Source: a virus. Taken from it: a stretch of DNA of 64,000 nt. Positions within the stretch are counted from its first letter, which is position 1; each line of letters opens with the position of its first letter. Location of the stretch: the IMG/VR virus record IMGVR_UViG_3300016469_000277, positions 44,308 to 108,307 of that record; one strand, given 5' to 3'. This document shows, one piece after another, positions 7,574 through 34,436 of the stretch. A program made the translations under genes and the position numbers. The notes beneath the pieces were generated by a model. That model searched no databases and had not been told where the DNA came from. It was given only the letters and a program-made list of their open reading frames with translations.

Positions 7574-8389
7574 TTAAAACAATCCGCCAGTAGAACTGGA
7601 GCTGCTTGAAGGTGTATAATCTGGTTCATCATCAATAAAAGGATTTCCGTCATCAACAAATTCCTTCAACAGGAAAGAGTCTCCATAGAAATCTTTACAA
7701 CCATATTCTCCTGTGAATTTCTTCTTTACATAATCAGTAATAGGAGAGTTCAAGTGGAGAATCCCTTTAGTAAATACAGATTGGAATTTACCATCTCTGA
7801 TAGTTAAAGGAATTTTAATACCGGAACCTTTAGAATTAAAAGCCTCAAAGAATTCACGAAGTTCGCTTACATTACCTTTAGTAATTGCTTTCCAATTATC
7901 TAGTACAAAAGGTTTTTCTTTTGGTCTAGCGTTGGCATAAGCTTTCAAAAGTTCATAAACATCCTCTTCGCCTGTTTTTGCTTCACGAATAGACTTAGTA
8001 TCTAAACGATAACTAGGATCTTTAGATTGTTGGTCTTGACTCAAAGTAGCCAAGTCAACAGCCCAAGCTGTTTTAGTAAAATTATCAATATACTGAGTTT
8101 TACCGCTATTTTTACCTACTACGGTTTCATCGTTTACCCAAAGACTAAACTTACCGAGAAGTTCAGTTTCACAGCTTGGGTGATTTTTGTACCAAAAGTC
8201 CAGACGCATTTTTCCTTCGGTCTTATCATACTCAGGATTTTTAATCTTTTCAATGTCTGTGTTAAAAAGACTAGCCAATCCTTTTTCGTTAGGATTTACT
8301 GATACGATTTGTACAGGAGCATAACCTGTGTAGAGTTTCTTTTCAAAGCCTTGTGCGCTTTCTTCTACTTCATTTACATTAATTGCCAT
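7574..8389 (-). CDS. Putative single-stranded DNA-binding or recombination protein
   Basis: Replication-module position near the AAA ATPase; acidic, flexible C-terminal tail ending in GLF. Confidence 0.5.
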   Translation of the reverse strand: MAINVNEVEESAQGFEKKLYTGYAPVQIVSVNPNEKGLASLFNTDIEKIKNPEYDKTEGKMRLDFWYKNHPSCETELLGKFSLWVNDETVVGKNSGKTQYIDNFTKTAWAVDLATLSQDQQSKDPSYRLDTKSIREAKTGEEDVYELLKAYANARPKEKPFVLDNWKAITKGNVSELREFFEAFNSKGSGIKIPLTIRDGKFQSVFTKGILHLNSPITDYVKKKFTGEYGCKDFYGDSFLLKEFVDDGNPFIDDEPDYTPSSSSSSTGGLF

Positions 8390-8413
8390 GATTTTTTGTT
8401 TTTAATTTGTTTG

Positions 8414-8665
8414 TTAATTTTGATAAATTGTTTGATAGTCTTTACTTGAATAAAGTTCTTCTGTTGGTTGTCCGTCGTTTTCTTCCTTACTCATAAGTTC
8501 AGTAGTCTCAAAAATAGGTTCCCAAGAGTACTCACTTACTTTTCCGTTTTCTACTAATTCTATAGCTAGTTTTTTAGCTTCTTCGTAATTTTCTGCTTCT
8601 ACTTCAAAGTTAGTTCTGTTCCAACTTGTTACTTTTTGGTCAAAAAAGAATTGAAATTGTTCCAT
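8414..8665 (-). CDS. Hypothetical protein
   Basis: ORF tiling. Confidence 0.6.
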   Translation of the reverse strand: MEQFQFFFDQKVTSWNRTNFEVEAENYEEAKKLAIELVENGKVSEYSWEPIFETTELMSKEENDGQPTEELYSSKDYQTIYQN

Positions 8666-9330
8666 TAAGAATAGTATTCGTCGATTTTTTCTGAGACATA
8701 TTTTAAGTCATTGGGAATTTGTGTCTCTTCAAACATTCCCATTGGAGATTTAGCAGGACGCTTTTTAAAACGATTAGTCAAAAGAAAATACTCTGAACCG
8801 CTTTTGCCTTCATCTACATAAGTATAAAGACAAATAGTAAAGAGTCCTTCAAGATTAATGTTATTATCTAACATCTTGCCGATGGTTTTCATTTTATAGC
8901 TTACAATCTCTCCTCCATCTTCTACAGGCTCAGAGTGGCCAAGACAAAATACTTTTAAGTCTTTTCTTAGTCCTCTAGCGTTAGATAGAATACTAAACAT
9001 ATTTTGGCCTATCTGAGAGAATTTAGTATAACCTATCTCAGAAGCTCTCTTCATAAATTCAAAGCCCATTACATACTGAATATCGTCGATTACGATATTT
9101 TTAATGTGGGTTCCTTTCTCGCTGATATTCTTAAGAGTCTCAACGATTTCTTTTGAAGTAGAGATTTCTACATAGTTCTTGTTCTCTAGATTGTACATCT
9201 TAGAAGCTCCTTTGAAAGGAAGTTCTTTTCCTGCTACACCAATGATTAGAGTTTCTTTAGGATCTAATGTCCTAATGCTTGTTGATTTACCTTCGCCTGA
9301 AGGTCCAATGATACCTACTAGTAGTGCCAT
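8665..9330 (-). CDS. AAA_24/Sak4-like ATPase
   Basis: Walker A GPSGEGKST, Walker B IVIDD, AKSP.GMF; likely start MALLV at 9330. Confidence 0.85.
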   Translation of the reverse strand: MALLVGIIGPSGEGKSTSIRTLDPKETLIIGVAGKELPFKGASKMYNLENKNYVEISTSKEIVETLKNISEKGTHIKNIVIDDIQYVMGFEFMKRASEIGYTKFSQIGQNMFSILSNARGLRKDLKVFCLGHSEPVEDGGEIVSYKMKTIGKMLDNNINLEGLFTICLYTYVDEGKSGSEYFLLTNRFKKRPAKSPMGMFEETQIPNDLKYVSEKIDEYYS

Positions 9331-9341
9331 ATCTGATTTAT

Positions 9342-9644
9342 TTAGTTTAGTTGTTTTCTTTCTATGGTAGTCCAGCCAAAAAATGTAGCAAACTGTTGAG
9401 CTGCTCTTTTGCAAGCTTCTTTGTTTTTAGAAGTTATTTGCATTAGTTCTTTTCTAGCCGGTAAGCTGTTATAAAGATAATTAGTTAACCAATCTACAAA
9501 CTCTTGTTCTTGTTTTTCAGTCCAAGTATAATTAAGATACCAATCGTCTTGTTTAACATATTCGTCTGAGTAAGCTATACCAGTTTCCTCAAACATTTTC
9601 TCTAAAATGATCCGTAAATGTTCCTTAATTGGCGTTTTTCTCAT
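9342..9644 (-). CDS. Hypothetical protein
   Basis: ORF with TATCTTTG box (9649-9656) 4 nt upstream of the ATG. Confidence 0.65.
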   Translation of the reverse strand: MRKTPIKEHLRIILEKMFEETGIAYSDEYVKQDDWYLNYTWTEKQEQEFVDWLTNYLYNSLPARKELMQITSKNKEACKRAAQQFATFFGWTTIERKQLN

Positions 9645-9667
9645 AACACAAAGATAAAGAAAGTGTA

Positions 9668-10798
9668 TTAACTTTCCAAGTTATATTGTTCATTTTTACT
9701 CTTGTTTACATAATATTCATAGTTATTCTTTGTTCCTCCCATACTTTGTGCTTTAGGCAATTCTTCAAAATAAGGAACCCCTCTAGCAAAGTATAAGCCT
9801 AGTCTACCTGATAACCCCGATAGACGATCTTTTAAAAATCTAATACTGCGATAATTGTCTTGTAAGTAATTAATGTCGTAACCCTGATGTATTTCTATGT
9901 CGTATCTAAATGGTGCAAAAATTCCTATCACAACATCTGCTGAACGCTGAGTAGTCTTACAGTCTGCTAAGTCTGCTAGACTAGGTTCTAGTTTAGCTTC
10001 TACCAGTTCACCTTTATTAGTGAACATTTGAGATTCACCACTAGCAGCTTGCTGTTGAATAGGCACAAAAATTAATCCGTATCTTTTACAAAATATTTCC
10101 AGTCCGTAATGATCCACAAAAAACGCAAGAGTCTCTCTTAAGTCATGATAAACTCCTTGAATGGTTTCGGTATGAAGAAGAGAGATATGATCCACTACTA
10201 CAAAGTAATAAGTATCGTCTGCGTGCTTATAGTAAAGAGGATACTTCTTTTCATCTCTTTCCTCATAAACCATTTGGCCTTTGGTTGAATTATCGAAATA
10301 TCTTTCTACGTATTTTTTTATCCCGGTTGGATTAGAGATATGGTCAACGATTTCTACATGGTTCTCAAAGAACTTTAAGAACTCTGATTGACTTGCTTCT
10401 CTAATCCAACCTAAGATTTTGTCAGGGACTGTATAGTTACCAAAACTTAGCATCATTTCTGGTGTTACTATTTTTCCGTGAGTGTAATAAATACAGATAG
10501 ATATTGCTTCTAAGTAAAGTTTTTCTTTAGATTCCTCTAGAGCAAACCAAAATATCTTAATGTTAAAAGGATTCTTCCTCCACTTAATATAATTGGAGAC
10601 TATGATAAGCCATTTAGTAAATTTTGACTTTGCTATACCAGAGGAAGCAGTTATAAGATACATTTTACCTTTAACCCAACCTGGGTAATTATATTCGGTT
10701 GAAAGTCTATCTAGGTTCCAAGGAATAGAGTTATACTTGCCTTGTAAGCGATTATCTCTATTCTCTTCTATCTTTTTGTAGACTTCTTCAAACTGCAT
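9668..10798 (-). CDS. Replicative DnaB-like (SF4) helicase, crAss-type
   Basis: Walker A-like ASSGIAKS, FALEE, VVDHISLL, IQQQ, SADVV.G; likely start MQFEEV. Confidence 0.8.
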   Translation of the reverse strand: MQFEEVYKKIEENRDNRLQGKYNSIPWNLDRLSTEYNYPGWVKGKMYLITASSGIAKSKFTKWLIIVSNYIKWRKNPFNIKIFWFALEESKEKLYLEAISICIYYTHGKIVTPEMMLSFGNYTVPDKILGWIREASQSEFLKFFENHVEIVDHISNPTGIKKYVERYFDNSTKGQMVYEERDEKKYPLYYKHADDTYYFVVVDHISLLHTETIQGVYHDLRETLAFFVDHYGLEIFCKRYGLIFVPIQQQAASGESQMFTNKGELVEAKLEPSLADLADCKTTQRSADVVIGIFAPFRYDIEIHQGYDINYLQDNYRSIRFLKDRLSGLSGRLGLYFARGVPYFEELPKAQSMGGTKNNYEYYVNKSKNEQYNLES

Positions 10799-11295
10799 TA
10801 TAATTCTCCTCCAAAGCGGTTTTCTTGGCGGTCTTTTCCTTCTTTTAAATAAGCTTCGCACCAAGTAGCAAGATCAGAGGTATCAAATCCTCTTTCAGTT
10901 CTCTTGTAAACAAAATAGTGCGCTTGACGAATATACTGAGGAGTGCCTTGTTTCTTCCAATGTGCAATATACATATTGGTAGCCCCCATTATAGTGTCTT
11001 TGTCAAAGTTGTATTCCTTAATAAATTTCTCCATTTTCTCGCTGACTTGTTTTACAGAACTTGTCTTGCCAACAATTCCTATACTTTTGCGAGAAAACTT
11101 TTCAATAAACTCTTCAAGCCAATCTAACTCTGTGATTAGACTTAAAGCTTTATCTACGTTAACAAGTTCTAGGGCTTCAGGAGTCCAATACCACTCGTTA
11201 CTTTTTTTCACTAGAAGCCCTAGAGCTACCCACTCTTGAATCTTTTGTTCCTTCAAGAGTATCTTCCATAGTACTTCGTAGAATGTTAGTTTCAT
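10798..11295 (-). CDS. Hypothetical protein coupled to the helicase
   Basis: TAATG overlap with the helicase start. Confidence 0.6.
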   Translation of the reverse strand: MKLTFYEVLWKILLKEQKIQEWVALGLLVKKSNEWYWTPEALELVNVDKALSLITELDWLEEFIEKFSRKSIGIVGKTSSVKQVSEKMEKFIKEYNFDKDTIMGATNMYIAHWKKQGTPQYIRQAHYFVYKRTERGFDTSDLATWCEAYLKEGKDRQENRFGGEL

Positions 11296-11393
11296 CTGTC
11301 TTTAATTTTTTGGGGGCATCAAAATTACGTATATAAGTTATACGTGTCAAGTAGTCTTGGGGATTTTCTTCTCTCCTTAATATTTCTTCATAA

Positions 11394-12011
11394 TCATTCA
11401 TAAATATAAGTTCCTATCCATTCTCTATGTCCTTCTGGAGTGGTGGTTGTTTTTATTTTGTTAGTATTTGCATTTAAAAAACCTTTACCTTGTTCTCTAA
11501 TCTCATCAATATTCATTGGGATGGTTACACATTCAAACCCAATAGGCATCTTTGGTTGTGATAGGGATTGTAAAATTTTATCAAACTTCTGCATATCAAC
11601 ATAGCCTTTGCCATCCACAATAGAAAATGCTTCGGAAGTTACTCTTATGCCAAAAGTTATCATATCTTCTTCTGTGTATTTGTACTTTCCTTTTGCTGCC
11701 TTGTAGCCAATAACTATTCCTGGGTAAATATCATCTTGAGCAGTCTGATATACAGAGTATGCTTTAGATAGTTGGTTTGCTATATTCGCAACATCATCCT
11801 CTAACGGCGGCAGCAAATCCACACCTTCAAGAATAGGTGAGCCGTTAAGTGGTAGGTGGCTGATGATGTTTTTTGTTATGCTGTTTTCGCCATATTCAGC
11901 ACCGCCACTATGTTTTACTTTGTTTATATAGGCATCATAGTACCAACCTTTAATATCACTTTCATCTACTACAAGTAGATAGTCGTCTGTTTTAATTATT
12001 TCGTATTTCAT
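11394..12011 (-). CDS. Hypothetical protein
   Basis: ORF; N-terminus similar to 12008-12331. Confidence 0.65.
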   Translation of the reverse strand: MKYEIIKTDDYLLVVDESDIKGWYYDAYINKVKHSGGAEYGENSITKNIISHLPLNGSPILEGVDLLPPLEDDVANIANQLSKAYSVYQTAQDDIYPGIVIGYKAAKGKYKYTEEDMITFGIRVTSEAFSIVDGKGYVDMQKFDKILQSLSQPKMPIGFECVTIPMNIDEIREQGKGFLNANTNKIKTTTTPEGHREWIGTYIYE

Positions 12012-12331
12012 TTTATTTTAAGTTTACCTTCAACAAACTCTACTTCCCATTCTGTACCACCAATATAACCTTTCCAACTTTTCTCACCAATTAGTTCTTT
12101 TACTTCTGATAAGAAAATAATTTCTCCACCAAACCATTCAAGTGATTGTGTTGAGTGGGTGATTTTTGCATAACCTCTTCCATTCAACGATTTAGAATTG
12201 ATTATATCGGCTAAACTTCTATTAGCTTGTACAATTATTCCATTGTCAAAACTGTATAACCAATTCCCTTCTTTAATCTCTGAATCATCCACTATAATAT
12301 AGTAGTCTGTGTTAATTTTAATTAATTTCAT
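12008..12331 (-). CDS. Hypothetical protein
   Basis: ORF; paralogous N-terminus (IK.D.Y..VD.S.IK.W). Confidence 0.65.
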   Translation of the reverse strand: MKLIKINTDYYIIVDDSEIKEGNWLYSFDNGIIVQANRSLADIINSKSLNGRGYAKITHSTQSLEWFGGEIIFLSEVKELIGEKSWKGYIGGTEWEVEFVEGKLKIK

Positions 12332-17629: not shown

Positions 17630-19894
17630 TCAGTCAAATAATCTTTCAATATTATTTTCGGCTTCAAAATAAGATTCTGGTACAAAAAAGTAAGAACCAC
17701 AGTGATCGCAAGATAATATATCTGTGCAATCGTCGTGTTTTACTATTGAGTCACTAAAACAACAAGGACAATAACCTAGTTCTAACTCTGCAATAACTTC
17801 ATCATCTGTTATTTCTTCGTATTCTAGAACATGACGATACTTGTAAGTTGGAATTTTAAGTTTAGGCTTTTTTTGTTCAAAAGAAGAATTCCAATCGTCT
17901 ACTTCGTAGTCCTCACTCCATCTTTCTCCATAATTAACTGTAGTAGGCTTAAGTGGATAATCAGAAGTAGCTTTGTGTTCCCACTTAGTCTTTCCTAGAG
18001 TAGTTAAACACTCGTAACCAAAATTAATAGAATTTTCCAAAGCTTGTATAGAGGTAATTTCTTGTTCGGAATGCTCGTCAAAATAACCGGCTGATATGTT
18101 GCACCCAATGCAATTTACCCCAGGCAACTTAACAATCTCTCCAACATCAGTATAAACTCCATTGCTTTCAAAAAACTCATATTTTTCCATAATAGGTTTA
18201 GCTGCGTCAACAAACTCCTTACTGCAAGTTTTTACACCATTAGTATGAGTTATTAACTCCAATCCTTTATATGCATTCCTATCCATTTGAAATATCATGG
18301 AACAGTCATGAAAAAAGGCTACATCAGCTTGTTTACTTCCCACACCTTATTGTTACCATGTAAGCTCTTTATCTTACATTTCTGCACTTTCTTTTGTTAT
18401 ATGTGCAGTTCAGACTATATCATCACCATATAGGTGTTCCGCGCTCGTGGTGTTTTACCGTCCTTAACTTAATAGTAGGACTCCATACACTAGTCGTTGA
18501 ACCTTCAATGCGTTTCTGCAAAGCTTGGCTGCTGATTGTCCTCTTCAGGATTTTCCAGCAATTCACGGAATTTTAATTGGTCATGTGGGTATTTTCTATC
18601 TAAATAACAAGTTGCGTCTTTATAAATATAATTTAAAAATAAATTTTTTTCTTCAGTAAATTGCCAAACAAAAACATTTCTTTTAGTGTATCGAATGTTT
18701 CCAAAAGGTTTTTTAAATTTATTTTTAAAATAATTTTTAAAGTCTTCTAAAATTGAAGAAGTTTTACTAGTAAAAAGAATATTATTTCCAGAAAAACATC
18801 CATCTCCGTCAAAATAACCTCTTATAAAATGTCTAATCAAGTTTTCTAGAATATTAGGAATTTTTAAATCCATATAGGTTTTTCTATTTCCTAATCCAAG
18901 TTTTATCAAATGATCTACAAATTTTGTAGAACTAATTGATAAAGCATATTGATTTTTTCTCTTATACTTTTGATTATTCATAGGAGAGATAAACTCTTTT
19001 CCTTCTCTAAAATGTAAAGGTCCTTTATGACCTAACTCTTTTTTAAAAAATTCAAGAATGTGTTTATCTTTTTCTGCTAAATTAATAGTAAATGATTTTT
19101 CAATCCAAAAATCACTTCTTTTTCTAATGTAAATTCCTCCATCGGCAAACACAAATCCTAAAAAATATGCTTTAGCTTCTGTATCAATATTTTCAAAATA
19201 ATCTTCATTATACTGATACTTTTTACTAAATTTTTTTAAAGGATATTCAAAATCATAGTGTTTAAAAAACTTTTTTAAGTATTTTGAACACTTATTAAAA
19301 TGTTTACCAGTTTTAGTTATTGACCCGTTACTTAAATAGTAGGTATAGTATTGTTGTACGTTTTCTAAAGATTCCATATTACAAATATAATACAAAATTT
19401 AAAAAACCCAACACTCCTATACACATTTATTTTTAACCAATTTCTTCGTCTTTAAAAAATGCAATCTTAATCTCGTCGATAAGATCAAACATCATCAAAG
19501 CAAAAAGACAACCATTCTTGTCATCAAAGCCTACACCGCATTGCAAACCTGTTTCGTTGTCTATACCGTAAACAAATTTGTCTGTTCTTTCTATGCGGAG
19601 TTCTTTTTTGAAATCTTGGTTAATGTCGGTATGCGCTATAACACAAGGATACAAATCAGTATCTCCTTTGACTGCATAGAGATTTCCAAATTTATCTTGA
19701 GAGACTCTTACTCCAGGAGTTTTTTCTAATCTTTCTTTAAGCCAATTAATAAATCTATCTTGATGAGCAGATCCGCTAGGAGTTTGCTTATAAAGTAAAG
19801 TAAAAAATAAAGACCAATCTATTTTGATTGGATTGTCAAGTTTGGGAAAAGAGGGTTTAGCCTCTGAATACCCGTAGTTATAGTAAGAACGCAT
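17630..19894 (-). CDS. M28/M20-like zinc peptidase, spliced: join(19894..19435,18345..17630), about 391 aa, with C-terminal zinc ribbon
   Basis: Exon 1 has AHTD, GFDDKNG and EEIG; exon 2 has (C)VGS, QMDR, YTD, NISAGY..EH. Splicing restores EEIGCVGS in frame. Confidence 0.85.
18346..19434 (-). mobile_element. Group I self-splicing intron (1089 nt) with a homing endonuclease in the P1 loop
   Basis: P AATTGCTGGAAA, Q AATCAGCAG, R GTTCAACGACTA, S ATGATATAGTCT; P3 TTCCGTG/CGCGGAA. IGS GACCAATT pairs with the 5' exon AATTGGTT with a terminal U-G; P10 CCCACAT pairs with the 3' exon GTGTGGG; terminal G at 18346. Confidence 0.92.
18505..19377 (-). CDS. Intron-encoded double-motif LAGLIDADG homing endonuclease
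   Basis: AYFLGFVFADGGI and HFIRGYFDGDGCF motifs; likely start MESLE 4 nt after TATATTTG (19382-19389); the 3' end reads into the intron core. Confidence 0.9.
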   Translation of the reverse strand: MESLENVQQYYTYYLSNGSITKTGKHFNKCSKYLKKFFKHYDFEYPLKKFSKKYQYNEDYFENIDTEAKAYFLGFVFADGGIYIRKRSDFWIEKSFTINLAEKDKHILEFFKKELGHKGPLHFREGKEFISPMNNQKYKRKNQYALSISSTKFVDHLIKLGLGNRKTYMDLKIPNILENLIRHFIRGYFDGDGCFSGNNILFTSKTSSILEDFKNYFKNKFKKPFGNIRYTKRNVFVWQFTEEKNLFLNYIYKDATCYLDRKYPHDQLKFRELLENPEEDNQQPSFAETH

Positions 19895-24669: not shown

Positions 24670-25023
24670 TTAATCTATCTTAAAGTGTAAACTTGCTTGT
24701 CTTATTCTGTCATCTTCTTCTTCCATTTCTATTATATCGACTAAAGAGATTGTATGTCCGTTTATAGTCATTGGGAAGAGTTTAGAGACAGTTTCGTAAC
24801 AATAATTATCAAATCCTCCATGTCTAAAGTAAAGATGCTCTAATCCGCTAGAAATGCCTGTATTGATATAGGGCATATCTGTATACTTTAGTTGTCTGTG
24901 TTCCTTAAAATAATTGTGGTCAGCTTCCATTTCGATACTTATGCCTTTATCTAGTAAGATTTTGGCTAATTCTTTAACAGTATCTAGTAGAGGGTCTGCG
25001 AGTATTTGTTCTTTGAATGTCAT
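24670..25023 (-). CDS. Hypothetical protein
   Basis: ORF tiling. Confidence 0.55.
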   Translation of the reverse strand: MTFKEQILADPLLDTVKELAKILLDKGISIEMEADHNYFKEHRQLKYTDMPYINTGISSGLEHLYFRHGGFDNYCYETVSKLFPMTINGHTISLVDIIEMEEEDDRIRQASLHFKID

Positions 25024-25472
25024 TTTGATTTTGATTTTCTTAATACGATTGAGACACGGGGCTGTTCTGCCTCAAAATAATGTTCCCATGTATATCTGAG
25101 ATCTTCAGACATAATCGCTAAAGAGTAACGAGGAACAAGAAACTCTTTTATTTCTCCGTCTTTTCTAAATTTAAGAACTCCGTCACTTAAAAGACTAATA
25201 ATATAAATAGCATTACCTCCGTCAGGTGCGTCTTTATGCCAGTCTATTCTTTGTCCTTCTTTATACTCATTGATTGTTACAGAGTCAAAAGTTAAATCAA
25301 ACTTAAATATTTCTGGAATATGATAAGATACATGATGAGTTCCATAAGGTCTTCTAGCTCCATACCTTATTATTTGATTTCTATCTTTACCTTTAGCTCT
25401 TTTAGAGGGAATTAAAGCCAAGACTTTTTCTTCAAAGTCCTGGTCTACATAATTTTCAATTACTTCTAACAT
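25020..25472 (-). CDS. AlkB-family 2OG-Fe(II) dioxygenase
   Basis: INEY..GQ.I.WHKD (HxD), ISL, SL..M...RY.WEH, R.SIVLR. Confidence 0.85.
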   Translation of the reverse strand: MLEVIENYVDQDFEEKVLALIPSKRAKGKDRNQIIRYGARRPYGTHHVSYHIPEIFKFDLTFDSVTINEYKEGQRIDWHKDAPDGGNAIYIISLLSDGVLKFRKDGEIKEFLVPRYSLAIMSEDLRYTWEHYFEAEQPRVSIVLRKSKSK

Positions 25473-27599: not shown

Positions 27600-27618
27600 A
27601 GTGTTTTTAATTAGTTTG

Positions 27619-27725
27619 TGCGAGTGACAGGATTCGAACCTGTACGTAGGACCTACAATTAGATGATCGGCTATCCTACAGTAGTGATGATAATACTTGC
27701 GTCTAACCAATTCCGCCACACTCGC
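27619..27725 (-). ncRNA. tRNA-Leu-like RNA with non-canonical anticodon arm and enlarged variable arm (107 nt)
   Basis: Acceptor GCGAGTG/CACTCGC+A; D arm TGGCGGAATTGGTTAGACGC; T arm ACAGGTTCGAATCCTGT; anticodon stem AGTA/TACT with a 10-nt loop; variable stem GTAGGA/TCCTAC. Confidence 0.75.
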
Positions 27726-27807
27726 ATTTTTCTCCTTATAAACCCTTCCGGTGCACCGAACAAGAAACTGGGGAGAAGTTGTTTCTACTTTTAATTTTAA
27801 CTTAAGT

Positions 27808-28104
27808 TTAATCTGATTCTCTTCCTGAATAGATAATAGTATCTGAATAAATATCTAGCCAGTAGTCAATAAATCCGTCATGCTTTAGATAATAAACTCT
27901 GTCAAATTTAGGTTTCTTAAGACATAAAAGAATGTGAGAGTCTAATTTGAACACACAATGATTGATACAAGTATCGTGATCTAGAATGTGCGCTACAAAA
28001 GAAGAATCAAACTTTGTTAAAGGAGGAAAGTCCGAATGCACATTTAACTGTACATCCGGACTCTTACAAGCAAAAAATAGAGGGATAAGGATTAAAAGTC
28101 TCAT
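27808..28104 (-). CDS. Putative lipoprotein
   Basis: Short signal peptide with lipobox-like FFAC. Confidence 0.55.
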   Translation of the reverse strand: MRLLILIPLFFACKSPDVQLNVHSDFPPLTKFDSSFVAHILDHDTCINHCVFKLDSHILLCLKKPKFDRVYYLKHDGFIDYWLDIYSDTIIYSGRESD

Positions 28105-28451
28105 AATCCTAGCATTACTTCAACAACTTTTTTCTTTTCGTTACGATTAAGCTTTTTAATCATAGCCAAAATGATGTCTAGTTGTTGTTCTACTGACAAT
28201 TCTTGTTTAAGGTCTCTTCTTGCGTTCTTTTGATTTCCTAAAGTGGAAATTCCGCTAGAAGAAACTACAGTCATAACAGTTCCCTCATGTCTTAACTTAG
28301 AATAATAATAAGCTGAAATAGCCCCTACGGTTCTTTCAGGCATACTAACAGCTGCTTTCTCAAAAGCTGCTCTTAAATTGTTAGGATACTGCTTCACAGC
28401 AGACAAAACGATGTTCTGGTCTTCTCTAGACCAACTTAATCTAGTACTCAT
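28101..28451 (-). CDS. Myb/SANT-like HTH protein
   Basis: WS.ED...L......N...AF..AA....RT..A....Y pattern. Confidence 0.5.
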   Translation of the reverse strand: MSTRLSWSREDQNIVLSAVKQYPNNLRAAFEKAAVSMPERTVGAISAYYYSKLRHEGTVMTVVSSSGISTLGNQKNARRDLKQELSVEQQLDIILAMIKKLNRNEKKKVVEVMLGL

Positions 28452-28493
28452 AGTATTTTTTTCTTGGGTTTATTTTTTCTTGGTTTGTTTTAA

Positions 28494-28531
28494 TTAAAAA
28501 AATAAGGTAGTGAACTTAATCACTACCTTAT
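28494..28531 (-). terminator. Intrinsic terminator
   Basis: ATAAGGTAGTGA/TCACTACCTTAT hairpin plus T tract. Confidence 0.75.
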
Positions 28532-28680
28532 CATTGAAAATCACAGTACAATGTGATTTTTGTTGCTCTTTATTCTATTACCCTTTTATTTCAGAGCAAA
28601 CCTGCTTATCTATAGCGTCTCGCGTCCAAACGGTTATGGACCGTGGTGCCTTTATAAGATTTCAAGGGTACAGGTTTTTG

Positions 28681-28812
28681 TAGTCAGGACAGGATTCGAA
28701 CCTGTATGATGTACTGCTTCACTTCCAAAACGGTTGATTCCCTTGTATGGACGCATCGACACATCTCCTATTTAATCTTATAGTAGCGTCTAACCAATTC
28801 CGCCACCTGACT
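28681..28812 (-). ncRNA. tRNA-Leu-like RNA with non-canonical anticodon arm and very large variable arm (132 nt)
   Basis: Acceptor AGTCAGG/CCTGACT+A; D and T arms identical to the 27619 element; anticodon stem CTAT/ATAG with an 8-nt loop; variable stem GATGT/ACATC enclosing about 45 nt. Confidence 0.75.
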
Positions 28813-28985
28813 ATGTTTGCCTTTTAAAGTAGTTTAAACGACGTCAAAGTATTTGCAAAGGCTAACTAATACTTCTATCTCCTATACGATGAGAACGGAC
28901 TTAATCCGTGTTTTACGATCCTCTGGCCTAGAGGCTAGTTTCTTCTCTAAAGCAGCCTTTGCAAAGATAATAAAGTTTAGAAAAT

Positions 28986-29384
28986 TTACCAAATAAGATG
29001 CTTAACTATTTCTAGTACTTCTTCGTTAGGGATAGTTTGACAACCTACTTGAATTTTTCCTTTTTTGAAGGTTACTGTATAATCTCCTACGTTAACAATT
29101 GGAGGGGCTTTAAAAGAAGGATCTAACTCAAGAGAAATAATCTCTACTTTATTTTCTGTTAAGTTTACTGAGTTTCCCTTTCTAATACTCCAAGAATAAT
29201 CAAATCCTAATTTGTCATAACAGAGAGCTCCATTTTTTACGTTTTGACAAAGATAAATGTCTCCATCTTCTTTTTGGATTCTTCCTTCACACTCAACTTC
29301 TTCAATCTTAGCTTTGAATTTAGTACCTACTGGTACATTATCCCAATCAGGGATTAATACGGTTTTAAATAAGTTATTTTCCAT
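28986..29384 (-). CDS. Hypothetical protein
   Basis: ORF. Confidence 0.65.
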   Translation of the reverse strand: MENNLFKTVLIPDWDNVPVGTKFKAKIEEVECEGRIQKEDGDIYLCQNVKNGALCYDKLGFDYSWSIRKGNSVNLTENKVEIISLELDPSFKAPPIVNVGDYTVTFKKGKIQVGCQTIPNEEVLEIVKHLIW

Positions 29385-29406
29385 GGTTTTTTAGTTTAAT
29401 TTTTAG

Positions 29407-29482
29407 TAGCCGGAAGGGGAATCGAACCACCTATCTCCAAGATGAAATCTTGTTGTCCTAAAATCCATTAGACGATCCGGCC
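29407..29482 (-). tRNA. tRNA-Glu(UUC), CCA not encoded
   Basis: Acceptor GGCCGGA/TCCGGCT, D arm GTCTAATGG..AGGAC, anticodon loop ATTTCAT, T loop TTCGATT; one mismatch each in the anticodon and T stems. Confidence 0.8.
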
Positions 29483-29743
29483 ATTTTACCAAATTAGAAA
29501 CAGCGAAAACCGCCCAAAGTAAAAGAGTCAGTAAGTTTCTTTACAGAAGCTTTAGCTTTGTTAGCAATTACTCCTTCGCTTTCTCTTTTCTCTACTGTAG
29601 TAGTAGATTTCTGTGTTTGATACGTTGTCTTTTTCATAGTTTTTATAGTTTAGTTTTTCTTTTTCTTGATTTACGAACATCAACAGGTTTAGCCTCAAGA
29701 CAAAACCCTAAAATAAAAGCAGAAAGAATTAGGATTACGTAAG

Positions 29744-29974
29744 TCATAATCCTAATTCCTCGTACTCGTTAAATTCAATGTCTCTAATATCTGCTTCTAG
29801 GAAACATTTTTCAATATTTCCCATTACAGAATTAGATGGACTTGGTTTACCCTCGTTAAGTAACGATTCGTAGTGACTAATAATTTTAGAAACACTAACC
29901 CCATTGCGAACTGTGCCGTCAATGAGATTAGTGAATCTAATTTTAGTTTTTTCAAGAGCTTCAGTCTTTGTCAT
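29744..29974 (-). CDS. Hypothetical protein (likely start MTKTEAL)
   Basis: ORF tiling. Confidence 0.5.
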   Translation of the reverse strand: MTKTEALEKTKIRFTNLIDGTVRNGVSVSKIISHYESLLNEGKPSPSNSVMGNIEKCFLEADIRDIEFNEYEELGL

Positions 29975-30773
29975 TTGGTTCCTCCTCGCAAAGATTATCT
30001 TTAGCAAACTCATATTCTTCCATAACAGATTTAAAGCGATAATTTCTGCCAAATCTTTCTTTACGGTCATTATCCCAGTAATAATCAATAGCAAGAATCT
30101 TATCAAGCAAACTCAAATGATAAATTTGTGATCCTTCTAACTTTTTTATTTCTATAAAAGGAGGACCATAAGTAAACATACCTGTTTGTGCTTGGTCAAT
30201 ACGAACTTCATAACCTTGCGACAAAGACTCTATTATTTCGTCTTTAAGCAATAGAAAGTATTTACGATATTCATCTTCATAACTTTCTTTTAGTTCATAA
30301 AACATACTTTCTATTGCTTCTTCTTGTAATTTATAAAGAATGTTACGATCTTTAGAAAGTAAATCAGCAACAGAAGTGTAAACTTTAGGATTACTACTGA
30401 ATTGACTATCCACTAAAAAGTATATTTTAGCACTGATTGGATAACTTTCTTCTGTAGAGTAATCATATTCACTTCCTTCATAAGTATAGATACCAAGCTC
30501 AAAACTTTTATCAATTGAGCTATTAAATGTACTGTCAGTTAGTTCAATAGTATCAATATACTTAATGTCGTGATCGGGATAAGCAAGTATTTTTGCTTTT
30601 TCTTGTTCAATCTCTTCATACCTAGGACTACCTGGTTTGTAGTCATTTGAAAAAAGACGATGAACTTGTTTTTTTTGATGATACTCTGTTACAATTTCTG
30701 CAAAAGAGTCAGAAGCTTGTGTAGTTAGGATATTATCCAACACAAAAATGTTTTTTAGTTTTATTTTTCTCAT
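29961..30773 (-). CDS. Hypothetical protein
   Basis: Long ORF. Confidence 0.65.
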   Translation of the reverse strand: MRKIKLKNIFVLDNILTTQASDSFAEIVTEYHQKKQVHRLFSNDYKPGSPRYEEIEQEKAKILAYPDHDIKYIDTIELTDSTFNSSIDKSFELGIYTYEGSEYDYSTEESYPISAKIYFLVDSQFSSNPKVYTSVADLLSKDRNILYKLQEEAIESMFYELKESYEDEYRKYFLLLKDEIIESLSQGYEVRIDQAQTGMFTYGPPFIEIKKLEGSQIYHLSLLDKILAIDYYWDNDRKERFGRNYRFKSVMEEYEFAKDNLCEEEPNDKD

Positions 30774-30812
30774 AGTTTTAGTTTAGTTTAAGTTTAAGAA
30801 AAGAGAGCCCTA

Positions 30813-31118
30813 TTACAGGCTCTCATTTACGTCTTCCGCTGTATAATAGTGTTTACCAGAACGCCATTGATACCATTCGTATTCTTCGTAATTATAAAAT
30901 TGTTCATAATCACAAGTAATATCTTCAGGATCTTGAGAATAAAATTCTTCTTTTGTCATACTAGGAACAAAGACTTTATTTTTTTCATTCTCTTGTTCTA
31001 CGTAGACTTTAGCATCTTCTTCCCTAGCGAATACTTTGTAGAGATAAACACGATACTCTTCGTAAGGCAGTTCGTTATCATACCATACGAGGTAGACTTT
31101 TTTAACAGTATTTTCCAT
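30813..31118 (-). CDS. Hypothetical protein (KVYLV...VF..EE.AK.Y family)
   Basis: ORF immediately downstream of a twister ribozyme. Confidence 0.65.
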   Translation of the reverse strand: MENTVKKVYLVWYDNELPYEEYRVYLYKVFAREEDAKVYVEQENEKNKVFVPSMTKEEFYSQDPEDITCDYEQFYNYEEYEWYQWRSGKHYYTAEDVNESL

Positions 31119-31143
31119 AGTTTATACTTTTTAGTTTAGTTTA

Positions 31144-31290
31144 AAATTTACCCCTCTGCACTCAGTTGTAACTCCAGGTTTATACCCTGAGATTCAGACA
31201 TTACTACGCTGCAGTCTTTCTCTGCAGATGCTCGTATTCTTATTACAACTGTCAGCCCTTGGGAAGCTGAAGTGGTGCGTTAAAAAATTT
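31144..31290 (-). ncRNA. Twister ribozyme (type P1) with extended P5; predicted cleavage at 31282/31281
   Basis: UAA-CGCA-CC...UCAGC-UUCCCAAGG-GCUGA; P5 CAGUUGUAA/UUACAACUG; AGUGCA-GAGGG; T1 CCC/GGG and T2 CC/GG; one C-A mismatch in P2. Confidence 0.75.
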
Positions 31291-31533
31291 GAACCTGTAA
31301 ATAATAAACAGCAAGGTGTGGACTTTTACCACAGTTAAGGAAGTTTGCAATTCCTTTCACAACCTCATGTTAGGCTTGTACTTCTTGTACACCCTCGCCA
31401 TTTATTTTTATTATCCCTCTGCACTCAGTTGTAATAGATAGCCAGTAGTACTACAGTATGGGTTACATACTGTCCATTGCTGATTCCAACGCAGCATTAC
31501 CTGAAGTTGGCGGTCACTATCTGTTACAACTGC

Positions 31534-32067
31534 TCACCCTTGGTGAGTGTGCTGAGGAGTGTAGTACCACTTATATCCATAAGCGGTTTTACTACTATCT
31601 TTAGCTGCTTTTGACAAGCAGGTAGTTTTATAATTTAATTCTCTTTCTATGTCTTTCATACAAGACCACTCTTTGATAAATAACCCATCAAGAGTGTATT
31701 GGTATAGTTTTTTAGCTTTACCATGTTTAGCTCCAGAAAACATTTGAGAAAGTTTTTTCTTAGTTTCTTCAGTATGCTTAGGTCTATTTCCTCCTTTATT
31801 GAGATTAAGACCTTTGTTTTCATCTTTCCAATAGCATTTATAAAAAGCAATCCAATATTGCTCTCTTTCATCCGCTAAAGTGTCAGAAACCTCTTCTATT
31901 ATCTCACACACATGATTCGCAAAACCATATTTTTTCAAAGAGTTATGTAATCTATATTGAGTTCTACAATGTAGAATTTTATATAAATTCATTCTCTTTT
32001 TATAATCCTTTGTTTGCCCAATATATACCTTTCCTGTTGGACTTGTGATTTTGTATATTGTTATCAT
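31534..32067 (-). CDS. GIY-YIG homing endonuclease with NUMOD3 and NUMOD1-like DNA-binding modules
   Basis: TIYKIT...VYIGQT...R...E...N; KHTEETKKKLS; YQYTLDG.FIKEW...TAYGYKW; ATG 4 nt after TATATTTG (32072-32079). Confidence 0.9.
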   Translation of the reverse strand: MITIYKITSPTGKVYIGQTKDYKKRMNLYKILHCRTQYRLHNSLKKYGFANHVCEIIEEVSDTLADEREQYWIAFYKCYWKDENKGLNLNKGGNRPKHTEETKKKLSQMFSGAKHGKAKKLYQYTLDGLFIKEWSCMKDIERELNYKTTCLSKAAKDSSKTAYGYKWYYTPQHTHQG

Positions 32068-32137
32068 AATACAAATATACAAAATAATGCACCATTTCCC
32101 AAGGGCTTAGGAAAATAAATTTCTTTATCACCCTTGG
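31534..32137 (-). mobile_element. Free-standing endonuclease insertion bounded by a 10-bp direct repeat CCAAGGGTGA
   Basis: tcacccttgg at 31534-31543 and 32128-32137; removing 594 bp restores a continuous twister. Confidence 0.75.
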
Positions 32138-32322
32138 GAAACTGATTAACTAACAATATACAACAGAGGATTTTACAACTGCTGTTATTATTCTTCATTA
32201 ATCAGTGTGGTTTCACATCTTGACCCATCAAGCAGGGCAGCGACAAGAAGTCTTTATATCCACGTGAGTTATGGTGCATTAATAAATTGCTATTTAACGG
32301 ATAGCTCCGACAGAATCAGCTT

Positions 32323-32538
32323 TTATGTATAAGCATTAATAAAAGCGTATTGAATAAGTTTAAAGCCTTCAGTTTCTTTCATTTCATCACAAGGATGAAT
32401 GTAAGCATAACTTACGTTACTAAAAGCCCCGTGCCACACTGCTTTAACAAAGGCATCTCTACCAAATTCAGCAATGAAAACATTCATGGAGTTGATTTCT
32501 TCAACTGAAACCATTTCTCCTATACCTACTGTAAACAT
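32323..32538 (-). CDS. Hypothetical protein
   Basis: ORF. Confidence 0.55.
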   Translation of the reverse strand: MFTVGIGEMVSVEEINSMNVFIAEFGRDAFVKAVWHGAFSNVSYAYIHPCDEMKETEGFKLIQYAFINAYT

Positions 32539-32615
32539 AGTTTTTGATTGAAATTTCGTTTTTTCGCAAAGAAGGTTGTTCTCTCCCTACTAAGAGAGAG
32601 AGAAACAACCAATCT

Positions 32616-32849
32616 TCAACCTTCGTAACTTTGACTTTCAAATGAATTGAGTTCTGACTCATTTTGTAAATCAATTAGCTGTTGTAGTTTATTAGCAGGA
32701 AAACTAATATAATAATACTCAGCTTCAATTTCTTTTTTTGTTAATGCAACAGCGTATCTTTCAATAACTGTTGTACCTGTAGAGTAATTGATAAACTCTA
32801 CTGTAAAAGGATTATATCCTATTACGTTGTGTGAAATATTATTGCTCAT
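32616..32849 (-). CDS. Hypothetical protein
   Basis: ORF followed by a hairpin at about 32572-32612. Confidence 0.55.
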   Translation of the reverse strand: MSNNISHNVIGYNPFTVEFINYSTGTTVIERYAVALTKKEIEAEYYYISFPANKLQQLIDLQNESELNSFESQSYEG

Positions 32850-33079
32850 AGTTTATGTTGATTTTTAGTCGTTTTTGTTTGATAGCCAGTTTGTTCGGAA
32901 ATTTTTCACTTTTTTCAAAGGCAATTTTTTGAGAATTTTTGTAAGATGAGGAGGTAAAAACCGCCTTTTTTCTACAAATTTACCTATATTTTAGTAGATA
33001 AATCTCGAGTTGTCTCCGAAATTCCCGGGAAAACACCAACTCATCTCATACTTTTACTACAAATAAGAGAAAAAAGCAC

Positions 33080-33106
33080 AAAAAAGGGGGAAATTAATCC
33101 CCCTTT
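33080..33106 (-). terminator. Intrinsic terminator
   Basis: AAAGGGGGA/TCCCCCTTT hairpin plus T tract. Confidence 0.75.
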
Positions 33107-33109
33107 AAG

Positions 33110-33379
33110 TTAAAAGTTGATACTTTCTAGGACAAAACGCCTGTAAGTTATCTCATTTACTGTTCTTGGTTCTATTTCTCTAATAGTAATTGTCTCTGCT
33201 TGTTTAAGTTGAAACATATCACTAATGGGAAACTGTGCTTTACTGCCAATAATAATCTTTTCGGATTTACCGTCAAAGTCTACTGTGATAGCAGCGTAGT
33301 CACGAACATAGGTGAAACCTTTTACAGGCTTTGTGAAGGTGGCGTTAGCCACGATAGCGGATTTAGTTGTAGTGCTCAT
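33110..33379 (-). CDS. Small beta-rich hypothetical protein (likely start MSTTTK)
   Basis: ORF between a conserved upstream motif and a terminator. Confidence 0.65.
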   Translation of the reverse strand: MSTTTKSAIVANATFTKPVKGFTYVRDYAAITVDFDGKSEKIIIGSKAQFPISDMFQLKQAETITIREIEPRTVNEITYRRFVLESINF

Positions 33380-33410
33380 TGTATTTAGTTTTAATGCCAC
33401 ATTAGGCACT

Positions 33411-33427
33411 ACCAACAAAGGGGCATT
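33411..33427 (-). promoter_or_regulatory. Conserved 17-bp upstream motif, copy 1 (AATGCCCCTTTGTTGGT)
   Basis: 16 of 17 positions identical to 34792-34808; both precede small minus-strand genes. Confidence 0.5.
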
Positions 33428-33484
33428 CCTAAAAAAATACCCTACTACAACCTAATCTCTATCTAAGATAGACTTAACTTAAAG

Positions 33485-33543
33485 TTCTGTTTCGACCCTC
33501 AATTAGGTCATCATCAGCAGAGAGAATAACTCTCTGGACAGAA
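33485..33543 (-). ncRNA. Type III hammerhead ribozyme; cleavage after GUC at 33537/33536
   Basis: UUCUG-UC|CAGAGAG-UUAUU-CUCUCUG-CUGAUGA-U-GACC-UAAUUGAG-GGUC-GAAA-CAGAA. Confidence 0.9.
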
Positions 33544-33936
33544 ATTAAAACAAGCAGTAGATAAACTCTCGAAATATAGTGGCCACTATAAACGATACAA
33601 AGATATTTACAGATTTCTCAGGTCTGCTTTCTCTTTAACACAATTGAGAATGTGTTCGTACTTCTCTACTACTTGTTTTAATAGTATATATCAGGAATAT
33701 ACCAGCACCGCTGTTTTTGCTCGTAGTCTACAGCTTAACCACAAGCCCCTATCCTTTCCCCTATTTACTACATTCGGGAATACTTTCAGGTAATTTTTAA
33801 AGATTGCATGTTTTTGAATAACGCTTTTGTATTTGGTTAACTCATAAGCGTCGGATAGAAAGCAAAAGAGTTTGGTATGCAGTAATATACCATTCTCTCT
33901 CTTTACTACAAGGAATGCCTTCCATAGTAGTGCTTT

Positions 33937-33996
33937 TTTCTGTTTCGGGACTCGATTATCCCATCATCAGGTAGAACAAAAGTCCTACGACAGAAA
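33937..33996 (-). ncRNA. Type III hammerhead ribozyme; cleavage after GUC at 33989/33988
   Basis: UUUCUG-UC|GUAGGAC-UUUU-GUUCUAC-CUGAUGA-U-GGGA-UAAUCGAG-UCCC-GAAA-CAGAAA. Confidence 0.9.
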
Positions 33997-34002
33997 GGGA
34001 GA

Positions 34003-34411: not shown

Positions 34412-34436
34412 GAAAAAGGGGGGTTGCCCCCCCTTG
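34412..34436 (-). terminator. Intrinsic terminator with GCAA tetraloop
   Basis: G-run/C-run hairpin plus T tract. Confidence 0.75.

Follow-up and report, generated by a model that had tools for sequence, protein, structure and literature searches.

Genomic setting of the RNA island

The window analyzed here is a stretch of 64,000 nucleotides (nt) of the virus record IMGVR_UViG_3300016469_000277 (positions 44,308 to 108,307), comprising the right 64 kb of this 108-kb linear record. Between 27.6 and 34.0 kb of the window lies an island of RNA elements: two hammerhead ribozymes, two twister-like ribozymes, two transfer RNA (tRNA)-like shells, a tRNA-Glu and at least four further structured RNAs (Table 1). 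An earlier note on this DNA had listed these elements on one strand, and comparison with relatives, together with Rfam, recovers all of them on the minus strand. In many phages the sequences of the frames stay constant, and those of the twister and the tRNA-like shell enclose arms that differ from one contig to the next.

The terminase, portal, major head protein and DNA polymerase of the genome are of crAss-like kind (PHROG matches). The best GenBank relative of the terminase belongs to a Leptolyngbya phage (42% identity), followed by Cellulophaga and gut crAss-like phages. Genes run leftward from ~34.9 kb and rightward, with the structural genes, from 35.0 kb. The leftward arm, probably the early one, has the island in its opening 7 kb and continues into the replication genes. 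Within the 108-kb genome, scaffolds of these kinds are confined to this arm. The small open reading frames (ORFs) within the island are orphans in PHROG and Pfam-type protein comparisons, and relatives sought using an ORF of 270 amino acids (aa) were not found.

The Rfam run that had been proposed for the region returned the tRNA-type elements but neither the hammerhead nor the twister families: at gathering and E ≤ 10 thresholds, a search of the window, of sub-windows of ~0.6 kb and of five short-insert twister loci reported only tRNA and transfer-messenger RNA. Because no ribozyme family was reported even at E ≤ 10, the ribozymes were tested by comparison with related viral contigs, designated here by L-numbers (L009, L145, etc.).

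Table 1. Features of the RNA island, listed along the minus strand with their positions in the window
Feature	Position	Strand	Remarks
Hammerhead 1 (HHR1), type III	33937..33996	-	predicted cut after C33989, site GUC
452-nt RNA between two predicted hammerhead cuts	33537..33988	-	comparison with relatives
Conserved multi-helix RNA, ~255 nt, 3' part of the 452-nt RNA	33791-33537	-	RNAalifold and covariation
Hammerhead 2 (HHR2), type III	33485..33544	-	predicted cut after C33537
Twister 2, 5' half	32128..32281	-	predicted cut U32281/A32280; colinear with L145
GIY-YIG homing endonuclease gene, 182 aa, inside twister 2	31534..32082	-	
Twister 2, 3' half	31412..31543	-	P4 3' strand, P5, 3' strand
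Four-hairpin RNA closed by a long helix, between the two twisters	31296..31410	-	z-score -4.58
Twister 1, complete	31144..31290	-	predicted cut U31282/A31281
tRNA-Glu (UUC)	29406..29482	-	Rfam tRNA 43.2 bits; ARAGORN
Multi-stem RNA with 12-bp closing helix	28851..28962	-	z-score -2.45
tRNA-like shell 2, 132 nt	28681..28812	-	Rfam tRNA 34.3 bits (cut-off 29)
Structured RNA after shell 2	28565..28677	-	z-score -2.19
Strong terminator after RNA 28677-28565	28532-28501	-	
Small near-invariant motif, ~63 nt, directly 5' of shell 1	27731..27793	-	near-invariant in five other contigs
tRNA-like shell 1, 107 nt	27619..27725	-	Rfam tRNA 40.4 bits (cut-off 29)

Hammerheads and the RNA between them

Both hammerheads follow the order stem III, GUC, stem I, CUGAUGA plus an additional U, a 4-bp stem II with the loop UAAUYGAG, GAAA, and stem III. 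HHR1 comes after a hairpin (34011-33996) in which ORF 34332-34003 has its stop codon. Its stem III is UUUCUG/CAGAAA and its stem II GGGA/UCCC, capped by the loop UAAUCGAG; HHR2 differs from it by compensating changes in stems I and II. The type III cores CUGANGA and GAAA are found in the two window copies and at 26 other sites, all of them with GUC as the N-U-H site where stem III begins, and the additional U after CUGAUGA is the one deviation from the hammerhead norm. The core is present in 31 viral contigs. Across the 28 distinct sites 95.2% of alignment cells are paired (100% in stems I and II), and two-sided changes are seen in 12 of the 17 pairs; none of 500 shuffles reached these values, and slid controls gave 37-50% paired. 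The hammerhead families of Rfam gave no match at E ≤ 10 when 651 nt and 10 kb were scanned with cmscan. Taken together, the alignment data indicate that the hammerhead fold is selected as RNA structure.

The next ORF begins 16-35 nt past the ribozyme at 21 of these 28 sites, while upstream of the sites lies either a gene-end hairpin or 150-800 nt of non-coding sequence. Such a position ahead of start codons suggests the processing of messenger RNA (mRNA) as much as the release of small RNAs. Separately, two hairpins are predicted between HHR2 and the ATG at 33379 (33421-33484, minus strand; z-score -2.57), the second of which (33442-33421) is terminator-like and may act as an attenuator within the leader that precedes the 89-aa ORF. 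A gene-end hairpin, GAGCC-UGUAAYAG-GGCUC, recurs right behind stop codons, in the window (30803-30824, minus strand) and upstream of hammerheads in L004, L023 and L026, and in several contigs immediately precedes a hammerhead.

The two hammerheads share a common core and bracket a 452-nt spacer, as the earlier note had recognized; their predicted cuts lie 452 nt apart and frame a discrete RNA. The 3' part of this RNA is structured and conserved: RNAalifold predicts 103 pairs in its ~255 nt, 40 of which show compensatory changes among L009, L021/L002, L012, L025 and L016/L013, and its 17-bp closing helix stops one base ahead of stem III of HHR2. The whole hammerhead unit recurs in L009, where the flanks have diverged, at ~90% identity by BLAST and a mean column identity of 92% when aligned pairwise, and the 3' part (~255-300 nt) is common to L021/L002, L012, L025 and L016/L013 at 70-76% identity. 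Among these relatives, the upstream hammerhead is found only in the window, L009 and L021/L002. Since few relatives combine it with the conserved 3' RNA, the stable association is that of a large conserved RNA followed by a hammerhead. By these comparisons, the ~255 nt in front of HHR2 are a conserved, covarying RNA and not variable cargo.

Twister-like elements with a constant P5

In twister 1, P2 is CGCAC/GUGCA and P4 is UCAGC/GCUGA with the loop UUCCCAAGG; its P5 insert is 71 nt long, and its 3' strand GAGUGCAGAGGGG stops 33 nt short of the ATG that opens ORF 31118-30813. Twister 2 is split in two. The 5' half contains the P2 strand UGCAC and the L4 loop UUUCCCAAGGG followed by UGA, with a second arm of ~117 nt (32262-32146) lying 5' of this loop; the 3' half contains the P5 stem AGUUGUAA/UUACAACU, an 89-nt insert and then GAGUGCAGAGGG. 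Over the 24 nt of a common 3' strand the two twisters are 96% identical; the inserts in P5 are unrelated.

The 3' 16-mer of both window twisters occurs in at least 120 viral contigs, and a second scan anchored on P5 alone added copies with altered cores. The consensus reads UAA, UGCAC, C, a short linker, P4 with the loop UUCCCAAGG, P5 AGUUGUAAU, the insert, AUUACAACU, GAG, UGCA and GAGGG, the UAA being near-invariant at the place expected for the U-A cleavage step 5' of P2. In an alignment of 48 twister-like elements 98.4% of cells are paired, against 28-50% in slid controls, and 0 of 500 shuffles reach the observed values. Covariation was detected in all five pairs of P4, two of the five in P2 and one pseudoknot pair. 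P2 varies from GCAC/GUGC to GCGU/ACGC or GCAU/AUGC, and the loop-to-tail pseudoknot T1 from CCC:GGG to CCA:UGG in L009, L247 and L198, and also in L199 in the wider set; for the T2 pseudoknot one candidate pair was seen, an invariant C-G (columns 17-36). These data indicate that the twister-like fold is likewise selected as RNA structure.

Every twister-like element has a P5, and the first 7 bp of this stem do not vary in sequence or in pairing. The P5 insert is 22-301 nt long (median 69) in 119 distinct elements, none having fewer than 22 nt. Among annotated twisters, P5 occurs in ~1% (PMC6154101). Moreover, in 11 relatives that retain P5, arm and 3' strand, the last of these pairs with an upstream CCCUUUGCAC-type strand. 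In these variants (e.g. L049, L063, L230, L263 and L267) a plain 10-12-bp closing helix, itself covarying, is combined with a P4 capped by a simple loop, such that the twister core cannot form. They may represent either a ribozyme that has lost catalysis or an ancestral three-way junction. Twister-like elements also lie head to tail in L074, L077, L111 and L132, and in L138 and L223 one runs straight into a tRNA-like shell.

tRNA-like shells

The tRNA-Glu is the sole canonical tRNA of the 108-kb genome, and only this element has relatives in 401 Bacteroidota genomes (75-80% identity). ARAGORN calls it and neither of the two shells, for which the Rfam alignment places insertions of 46 nt (shell 1) and 68 nt (shell 2) in place of the anticodon arm. 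Shell 1 has the acceptor GCGAGUG/CACUCGC and a 55-nt center unrelated to that of shell 2. Shell 2 comprises the acceptor AGUCAGG/CCUGACU with discriminator A, a Leu-type D arm, a canonical T arm, and an 80-nt center in place of the anticodon and variable arms. The shells are 93% identical in the D arm (27 nt) and 100% in the T arm (19 nt), whereas all seven pairs of the acceptor stem differ between them and are yet fully paired. Both have the top half of a tRNA, with a 7-bp acceptor, a D-loop GG and a UUCGAAU T loop.

The frame with the AGUCAGG/CCUGACU acceptor recurs in 46 viral contigs with 39 distinct centers of 42-80 nt. No anticodon arm common to these 39 centers was found, and in a cloverleaf test the shells do not pass as decoding tRNAs. 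In some large phages ~10 shell copies stand beside true tRNA arrays, none of them called by ARAGORN. One large phage contig, L159, has ~10 shells in a row (~8000-12300) adjoining 16 canonical tRNA genes. The comparisons indicate that the shells are derived from tRNA-Leu and selected as RNA structure.

That ARAGORN and the Rfam ribozyme models fail to recognize these elements, and that twister 2 is interrupted, could mark them as decayed tRNA and ribozyme pseudogenes without function. We find this scarcely credible for frames that are near-invariant across more than 100 contigs, that show compensatory changes in every helix tested, and whose acceptor stems, compared between the two shells, are compensated at every pair.

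A homing endonuclease gene within twister 2

The gene that splits twister 2 encodes a GIY-YIG homing endonuclease (Pfam PF01541, 29.1 bits against a cut-off of 22.6, with weak NUMOD1/3), and PHROG homing endonuclease families match the protein down to 2e-22. With the 594-nt block 32127-31534 removed, the twister halves are colinear with an uninterrupted twister in L145 across the junction of CCCAAGGGUGA and GCAGUUGUA; this alignment led to rejection of the alternative that twister 2 is a closing-helix variant that does not cleave. The last codons and the stop of the endonuclease sit in the second copy of CCAAGGGTGA (copies at 32137-32128 and 31543-31534). Related genes end at the same twister place in L126 (protein 82% identical), which has two such genes in tandem, and in L039 (28%). 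In each case the gene end lies inside the P4 3' strand, with the TGA stop in GGGUGAG (window 31534-32137, minus strand; L126 1330-2627; L039 3877-4425). These genes appear to belong to a GIY-YIG lineage specialized on twister DNA.

This association raises the question of whether the frames are selfish DNA, kept mainly as sites of recombination or homing, with the variety of their arms a by-product of repair tracts. Besides the GIY-YIG gene within a twister in the window, L126 and L039, such a mosaic is favored by a LAGLIDADG gene at 18505-19395 and by the varying contexts of the units among relatives, exemplified by the L009 hammerhead unit and its diverged flanks. However, an endonuclease gene lies beside only 3 of ~130 twister-like elements, and the compensatory changes in P2, P4, T1 and all hammerhead stems imply selection on RNA and not on DNA alone. 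We consider a selfish origin of the pattern decidedly unlikely.

Exchangeable arms

The 162 distinct inserts fall into 136 clusters, 117 of which are singletons, and none is common to the twister and tRNA-like frames. Flanks can be 94-100% identical and the arms within them yet unrelated (L271/L151, L074/L111, L065/L150, L113/L121 and L094/L102). The twister P5 arm and the shell center are replaced wholesale between close relatives. The near-identical scaffold around an unrelated insert, which the earlier note had pointed out in the twisters and in the tRNA-like shells, is therefore true of both pairs and general among relatives, and the proposed contrast of constant scaffold and variable cargo across related contigs is borne out by covarying frames on one side and by this diversity of inserts on the other.

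Most of each insert is predicted to pair with itself, usually in one or two hairpins. Compared with shuffled controls, their folding has mean z-scores of -0.93 and -0.55, with values below zero in 82% and 72%. GNRA-capped hairpins are in mild excess (13 seen, 5.5 expected), as are 7-nt loops, and in a by-eye reading of the sequences related arms keep their stems via compensating changes.

A constant frame with a highly diverse insert resembles guide-RNA systems, and the inserts might be antisense or guide sequences that pair with phage or host transcripts. However, the five window inserts, compared in sense and antisense with their own genome, gave no match beyond shuffled controls, and the inserts gave none in the 401 Bacteroidota genomes at E ≤ 0.001; their predicted internal pairing, with one or two hairpins each, also speaks against such a role. 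We judge it very improbable, and the antisense cargo suggested by the earlier note finds no support in these searches.

Other structured RNAs and transcription units

The RNA between the two twisters (31410-31296) shows six compensatory pairs against L002. The multi-stem RNA 28962-28851 is closed by the helix UUUGCAAAGGCU/AGCCUUUGCAAA, and a TAnnTTTG box (28969-28962) lies just 5' of it. RNA 28677-28565 includes 52 nt at 92% identity to L047. This box, RNA 28962-28851, shell 2, RNA 28677-28565 and the terminator behind it look like a dedicated non-coding operon. Terminator-like hairpins on the minus strand at 34433, 33106, 30824 and 28532 suggest that the arm comprises several transcription units, and not the one polycistron that had been envisaged.

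The ~63-nt motif beside shell 1 is also found directly 5' of shells in L163 (1450-1512), L188 (3139-3201), L115, L157 and L038. Its segments AGAAAC/GUUUCU and UUCUCC/GGAGAA could pair as a pseudoknot around a small hairpin; covariation here is sparse. Further along the leftward arm lie genes for an AlkB-like 2OG-Fe(II) oxygenase (25020-25472, minus strand) and the LAGLIDADG endonuclease (minus strand).

A model of the island and its alternatives

We lean modestly towards reading the locus as an island of modular RNA units common to phages, in which transcripts are cut at the predicted sites, the frames serve as chassis and the arms are the functional part. We infer the steps of this model from sequence comparison. 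The ribozymes would cut at the hammerhead and twister sites given in Table 1, and host RNase P and 3' tRNA-processing enzymes would cut at tRNA-Glu and the two shells, parting mRNAs from non-coding RNAs. Processing of this kind is favored by the hammerhead sites that precede start codons by 16-35 nt (21 of 28), by the closing helix of a conserved RNA against which HHR2 abuts, and by the share of twister-like elements at most 100 nt from the next ORF, 44% compared with 19% of random positions. The resulting mRNAs would have a folded 5'-OH leader, or a hairpin and a cyclic-phosphate 3' end, and such ends may stabilize them. Discrete stable RNAs would be released, comprising the 452-nt RNA, the 107- and 132-nt shells and the neighboring multi-stem RNAs. 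The twister and tRNA frames would act as chassis that fold the exchangeable arm, define its ends and protect it. The arm itself would be the fast-turning part, most plausibly a surface, perhaps a decoy, that binds factors of the host or the phage early in infection. Arms would be exchanged via recombination in the invariant frame sequences, sometimes aided by the homing endonuclease targeting twister DNA.

Of the cargo release put forward by the earlier note, this model retains the scaffold with an exchangeable arm; the ribozyme alone would not release the twister arm. Since cleavage by a twister falls solely at the 5' end of the element, the insert would stay on the downstream RNA as a 5' leader unless another nuclease acts.

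Several results weigh against the model of chassis and functional arm. A search of the genome with RF00008 gave no match at E ≤ 10, nor did RF03160 (twister-P1), and cmscan of the window and the five short-insert loci reported no twister family. The inserts are structured only modestly beyond shuffled controls, no strong motif common to them was found, and the searches of the phage's own genome and of Bacteroidota genomes described above returned no match. No partner enzyme (RNA ligase, RtcB, kinase-phosphatase or Ro60) was found among the window proteins. The twister-like elements are also coupled to ORF starts more loosely than the hammerheads.

The weak fold z-scores and the lack of a common motif would also suit a locus of pure transcript punctuation, in which ribozymes and tRNA shapes only cut and stabilize neighboring early mRNAs and the arms are neutral peripheral helices. 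The placement of most hammerheads shortly ahead of start codons fits such punctuation, as do twister 1, which forms the 5' leader of ORF 31118-30813, and the situation of shell 1 and tRNA-Glu between ORFs. Neutral arms are, however, difficult to square with arms that are always present and long, when ~99% of annotated twisters are without P5 (PMC6154101), or with a P5 whose first 7 bp are invariant in sequence, beyond pairing alone. Related arms also appear, by eye, to keep their stems through compensating changes, and the non-pseudoknotted variants retain the arm and lose the ribozyme core. We regard punctuation as the whole explanation as rather unlikely.

A bolder form of the chassis model is that the twister and tRNA-Leu frames display recombination-shuffled short folded RNAs, the arms acting as decoys or sponges, each for a different host factor. 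The frames would then express, trim and protect a repertoire early in infection, and the island would be an RNA counterpart of protein anti-defence islands. The 452-nt RNA could additionally close into a circle, because both ribozymes have the same stem III strand. This extension is speculative, and we think it unlikely to hold.

Distribution and significance

Self-cleaving ribozymes are known to cluster near one another and near phage genes, for reasons that are unexplained, and the role of those of bacteria and phages has been open since this clustering was seen (PMC6765202). The present locus and its relatives offer patterned, testable contexts in which to address it: a hammerhead subfamily placed ~20 nt ahead of start codons or 3' of the ~255-nt RNA, arm-bearing twisters with their pseudoknot-free sisters, and the tRNA-Leu frame. 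Should the arms prove to bind host factors, they would be a large and so far untapped source of natural RNA aptamers, and RNA engineering, with its tRNA and ribozyme scaffolds, would have a precedent in nature. Should they prove neutral, the locus would still show early phage transcripts being punctuated by ribozymes and tRNAs, as well as a homing endonuclease family targeting ribozyme DNA.

We found no paper on the tRNA-Leu frame, on a twister subfamily bearing an arm, or on the sister forms that do without the pseudoknot. Against 50,697 GenBank phage records, neither the hammerhead unit nor twister 1 nor shell 2 gave a match (shell 2: blastn, E ≤ 0.01). A 16-mer search of 596 Gb of prokaryote genomes gave 104 matches, about chance level, of which only ~8, each located on a short metagenome-bin contig, represent true elements. 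By this measure the frames are essentially absent from cellular genomes.

Comparison with known systems

Type III hammerhead ribozymes occur in bacteria and phages (RF00008), and Perreault et al. reportedly described hammerheads of bacteria and phages in 2011. The window family shares with them the three-stem junction open at stem III, the CUGAUGA and GAAA cores, the GUC site and the phage context, and its loops I and II are conserved, as a tertiary contact would require. It differs in the extra U between CUGAUGA and stem II in all copies, in an invariant 8-nt loop II, UAAUYGAG, in having no RF00008 score at E ≤ 10, and in its strongly patterned position, either ~20 nt ahead of a start codon or immediately 3' of a large conserved RNA.

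With twister (RF03160 twister-P1; PMC6154101), the window family shares the order U-AA, P2, P4 with a CCCAAG-type loop, P2' and GAGGG, as well as covarying P2 and P4 and the loop CCC:GGG pseudoknot T1. Unlike twister, it has a constant P5 with an invariant 7 bp and an exchangeable arm of 22-301 nt, a loop ending in AAGG rather than AAGC, and no RF03160 match. Moreover, it includes sister forms without the pseudoknot loop, and one copy hosts a homing endonuclease gene.

The tRNA cluster of phage T4 encodes the stable tRNA-like RNAs species 1 and 2 (rnaC/rnaD), and phage T5 has RNA1/RNA2; the GIY-YIG endonuclease SegB resides in the T4 cluster. These RNAs, like the shells, are non-decoding phage RNAs with tRNA-type ends among tRNA genes, and the T4 cluster and the island alike hold a GIY-YIG homing endonuclease in an RNA gene cluster. 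The shells differ in their recognizable tRNA-Leu top half and elbow, constant in 46 contigs around dozens of unrelated centers, and in their arrays of ~10 in some phages. The likeness is one of kind only, as shell 2 has no sequence match in GenBank phages.

A parallel in setting is provided by the hepatitis delta virus-like theta ribozymes, which flank tRNA genes of gut phages and are proposed to enable host-independent processing of RNA ends; the paper describing them names neither hammerhead nor twister (PMC10879173). In both cases small self-cleaving ribozymes stand beside tRNA-type genes in Caudoviricetes infecting Bacteroidota. The classes here are instead hammerhead and twister, and their partners are mRNAs, large non-coding RNAs and anticodon-less shells, whereas those of theta ribozymes are suppressor tRNAs.

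Finally, tRNAs are linked to other RNAs in the tRNA-miRNA (microRNA) units of murine gammaherpesvirus 68, in engineered tRNA scaffolds and in mitochondrial tRNA punctuation. These systems, like the shells, use the tRNA shape as a processing signal and as a stabilizing frame for another RNA. They are eukaryotic, engineered or organellar, and their cargo lies beside the tRNA or, by design, in the anticodon stem, whereas the shells are a natural phage family in which the cargo replaces the anticodon and variable arms.

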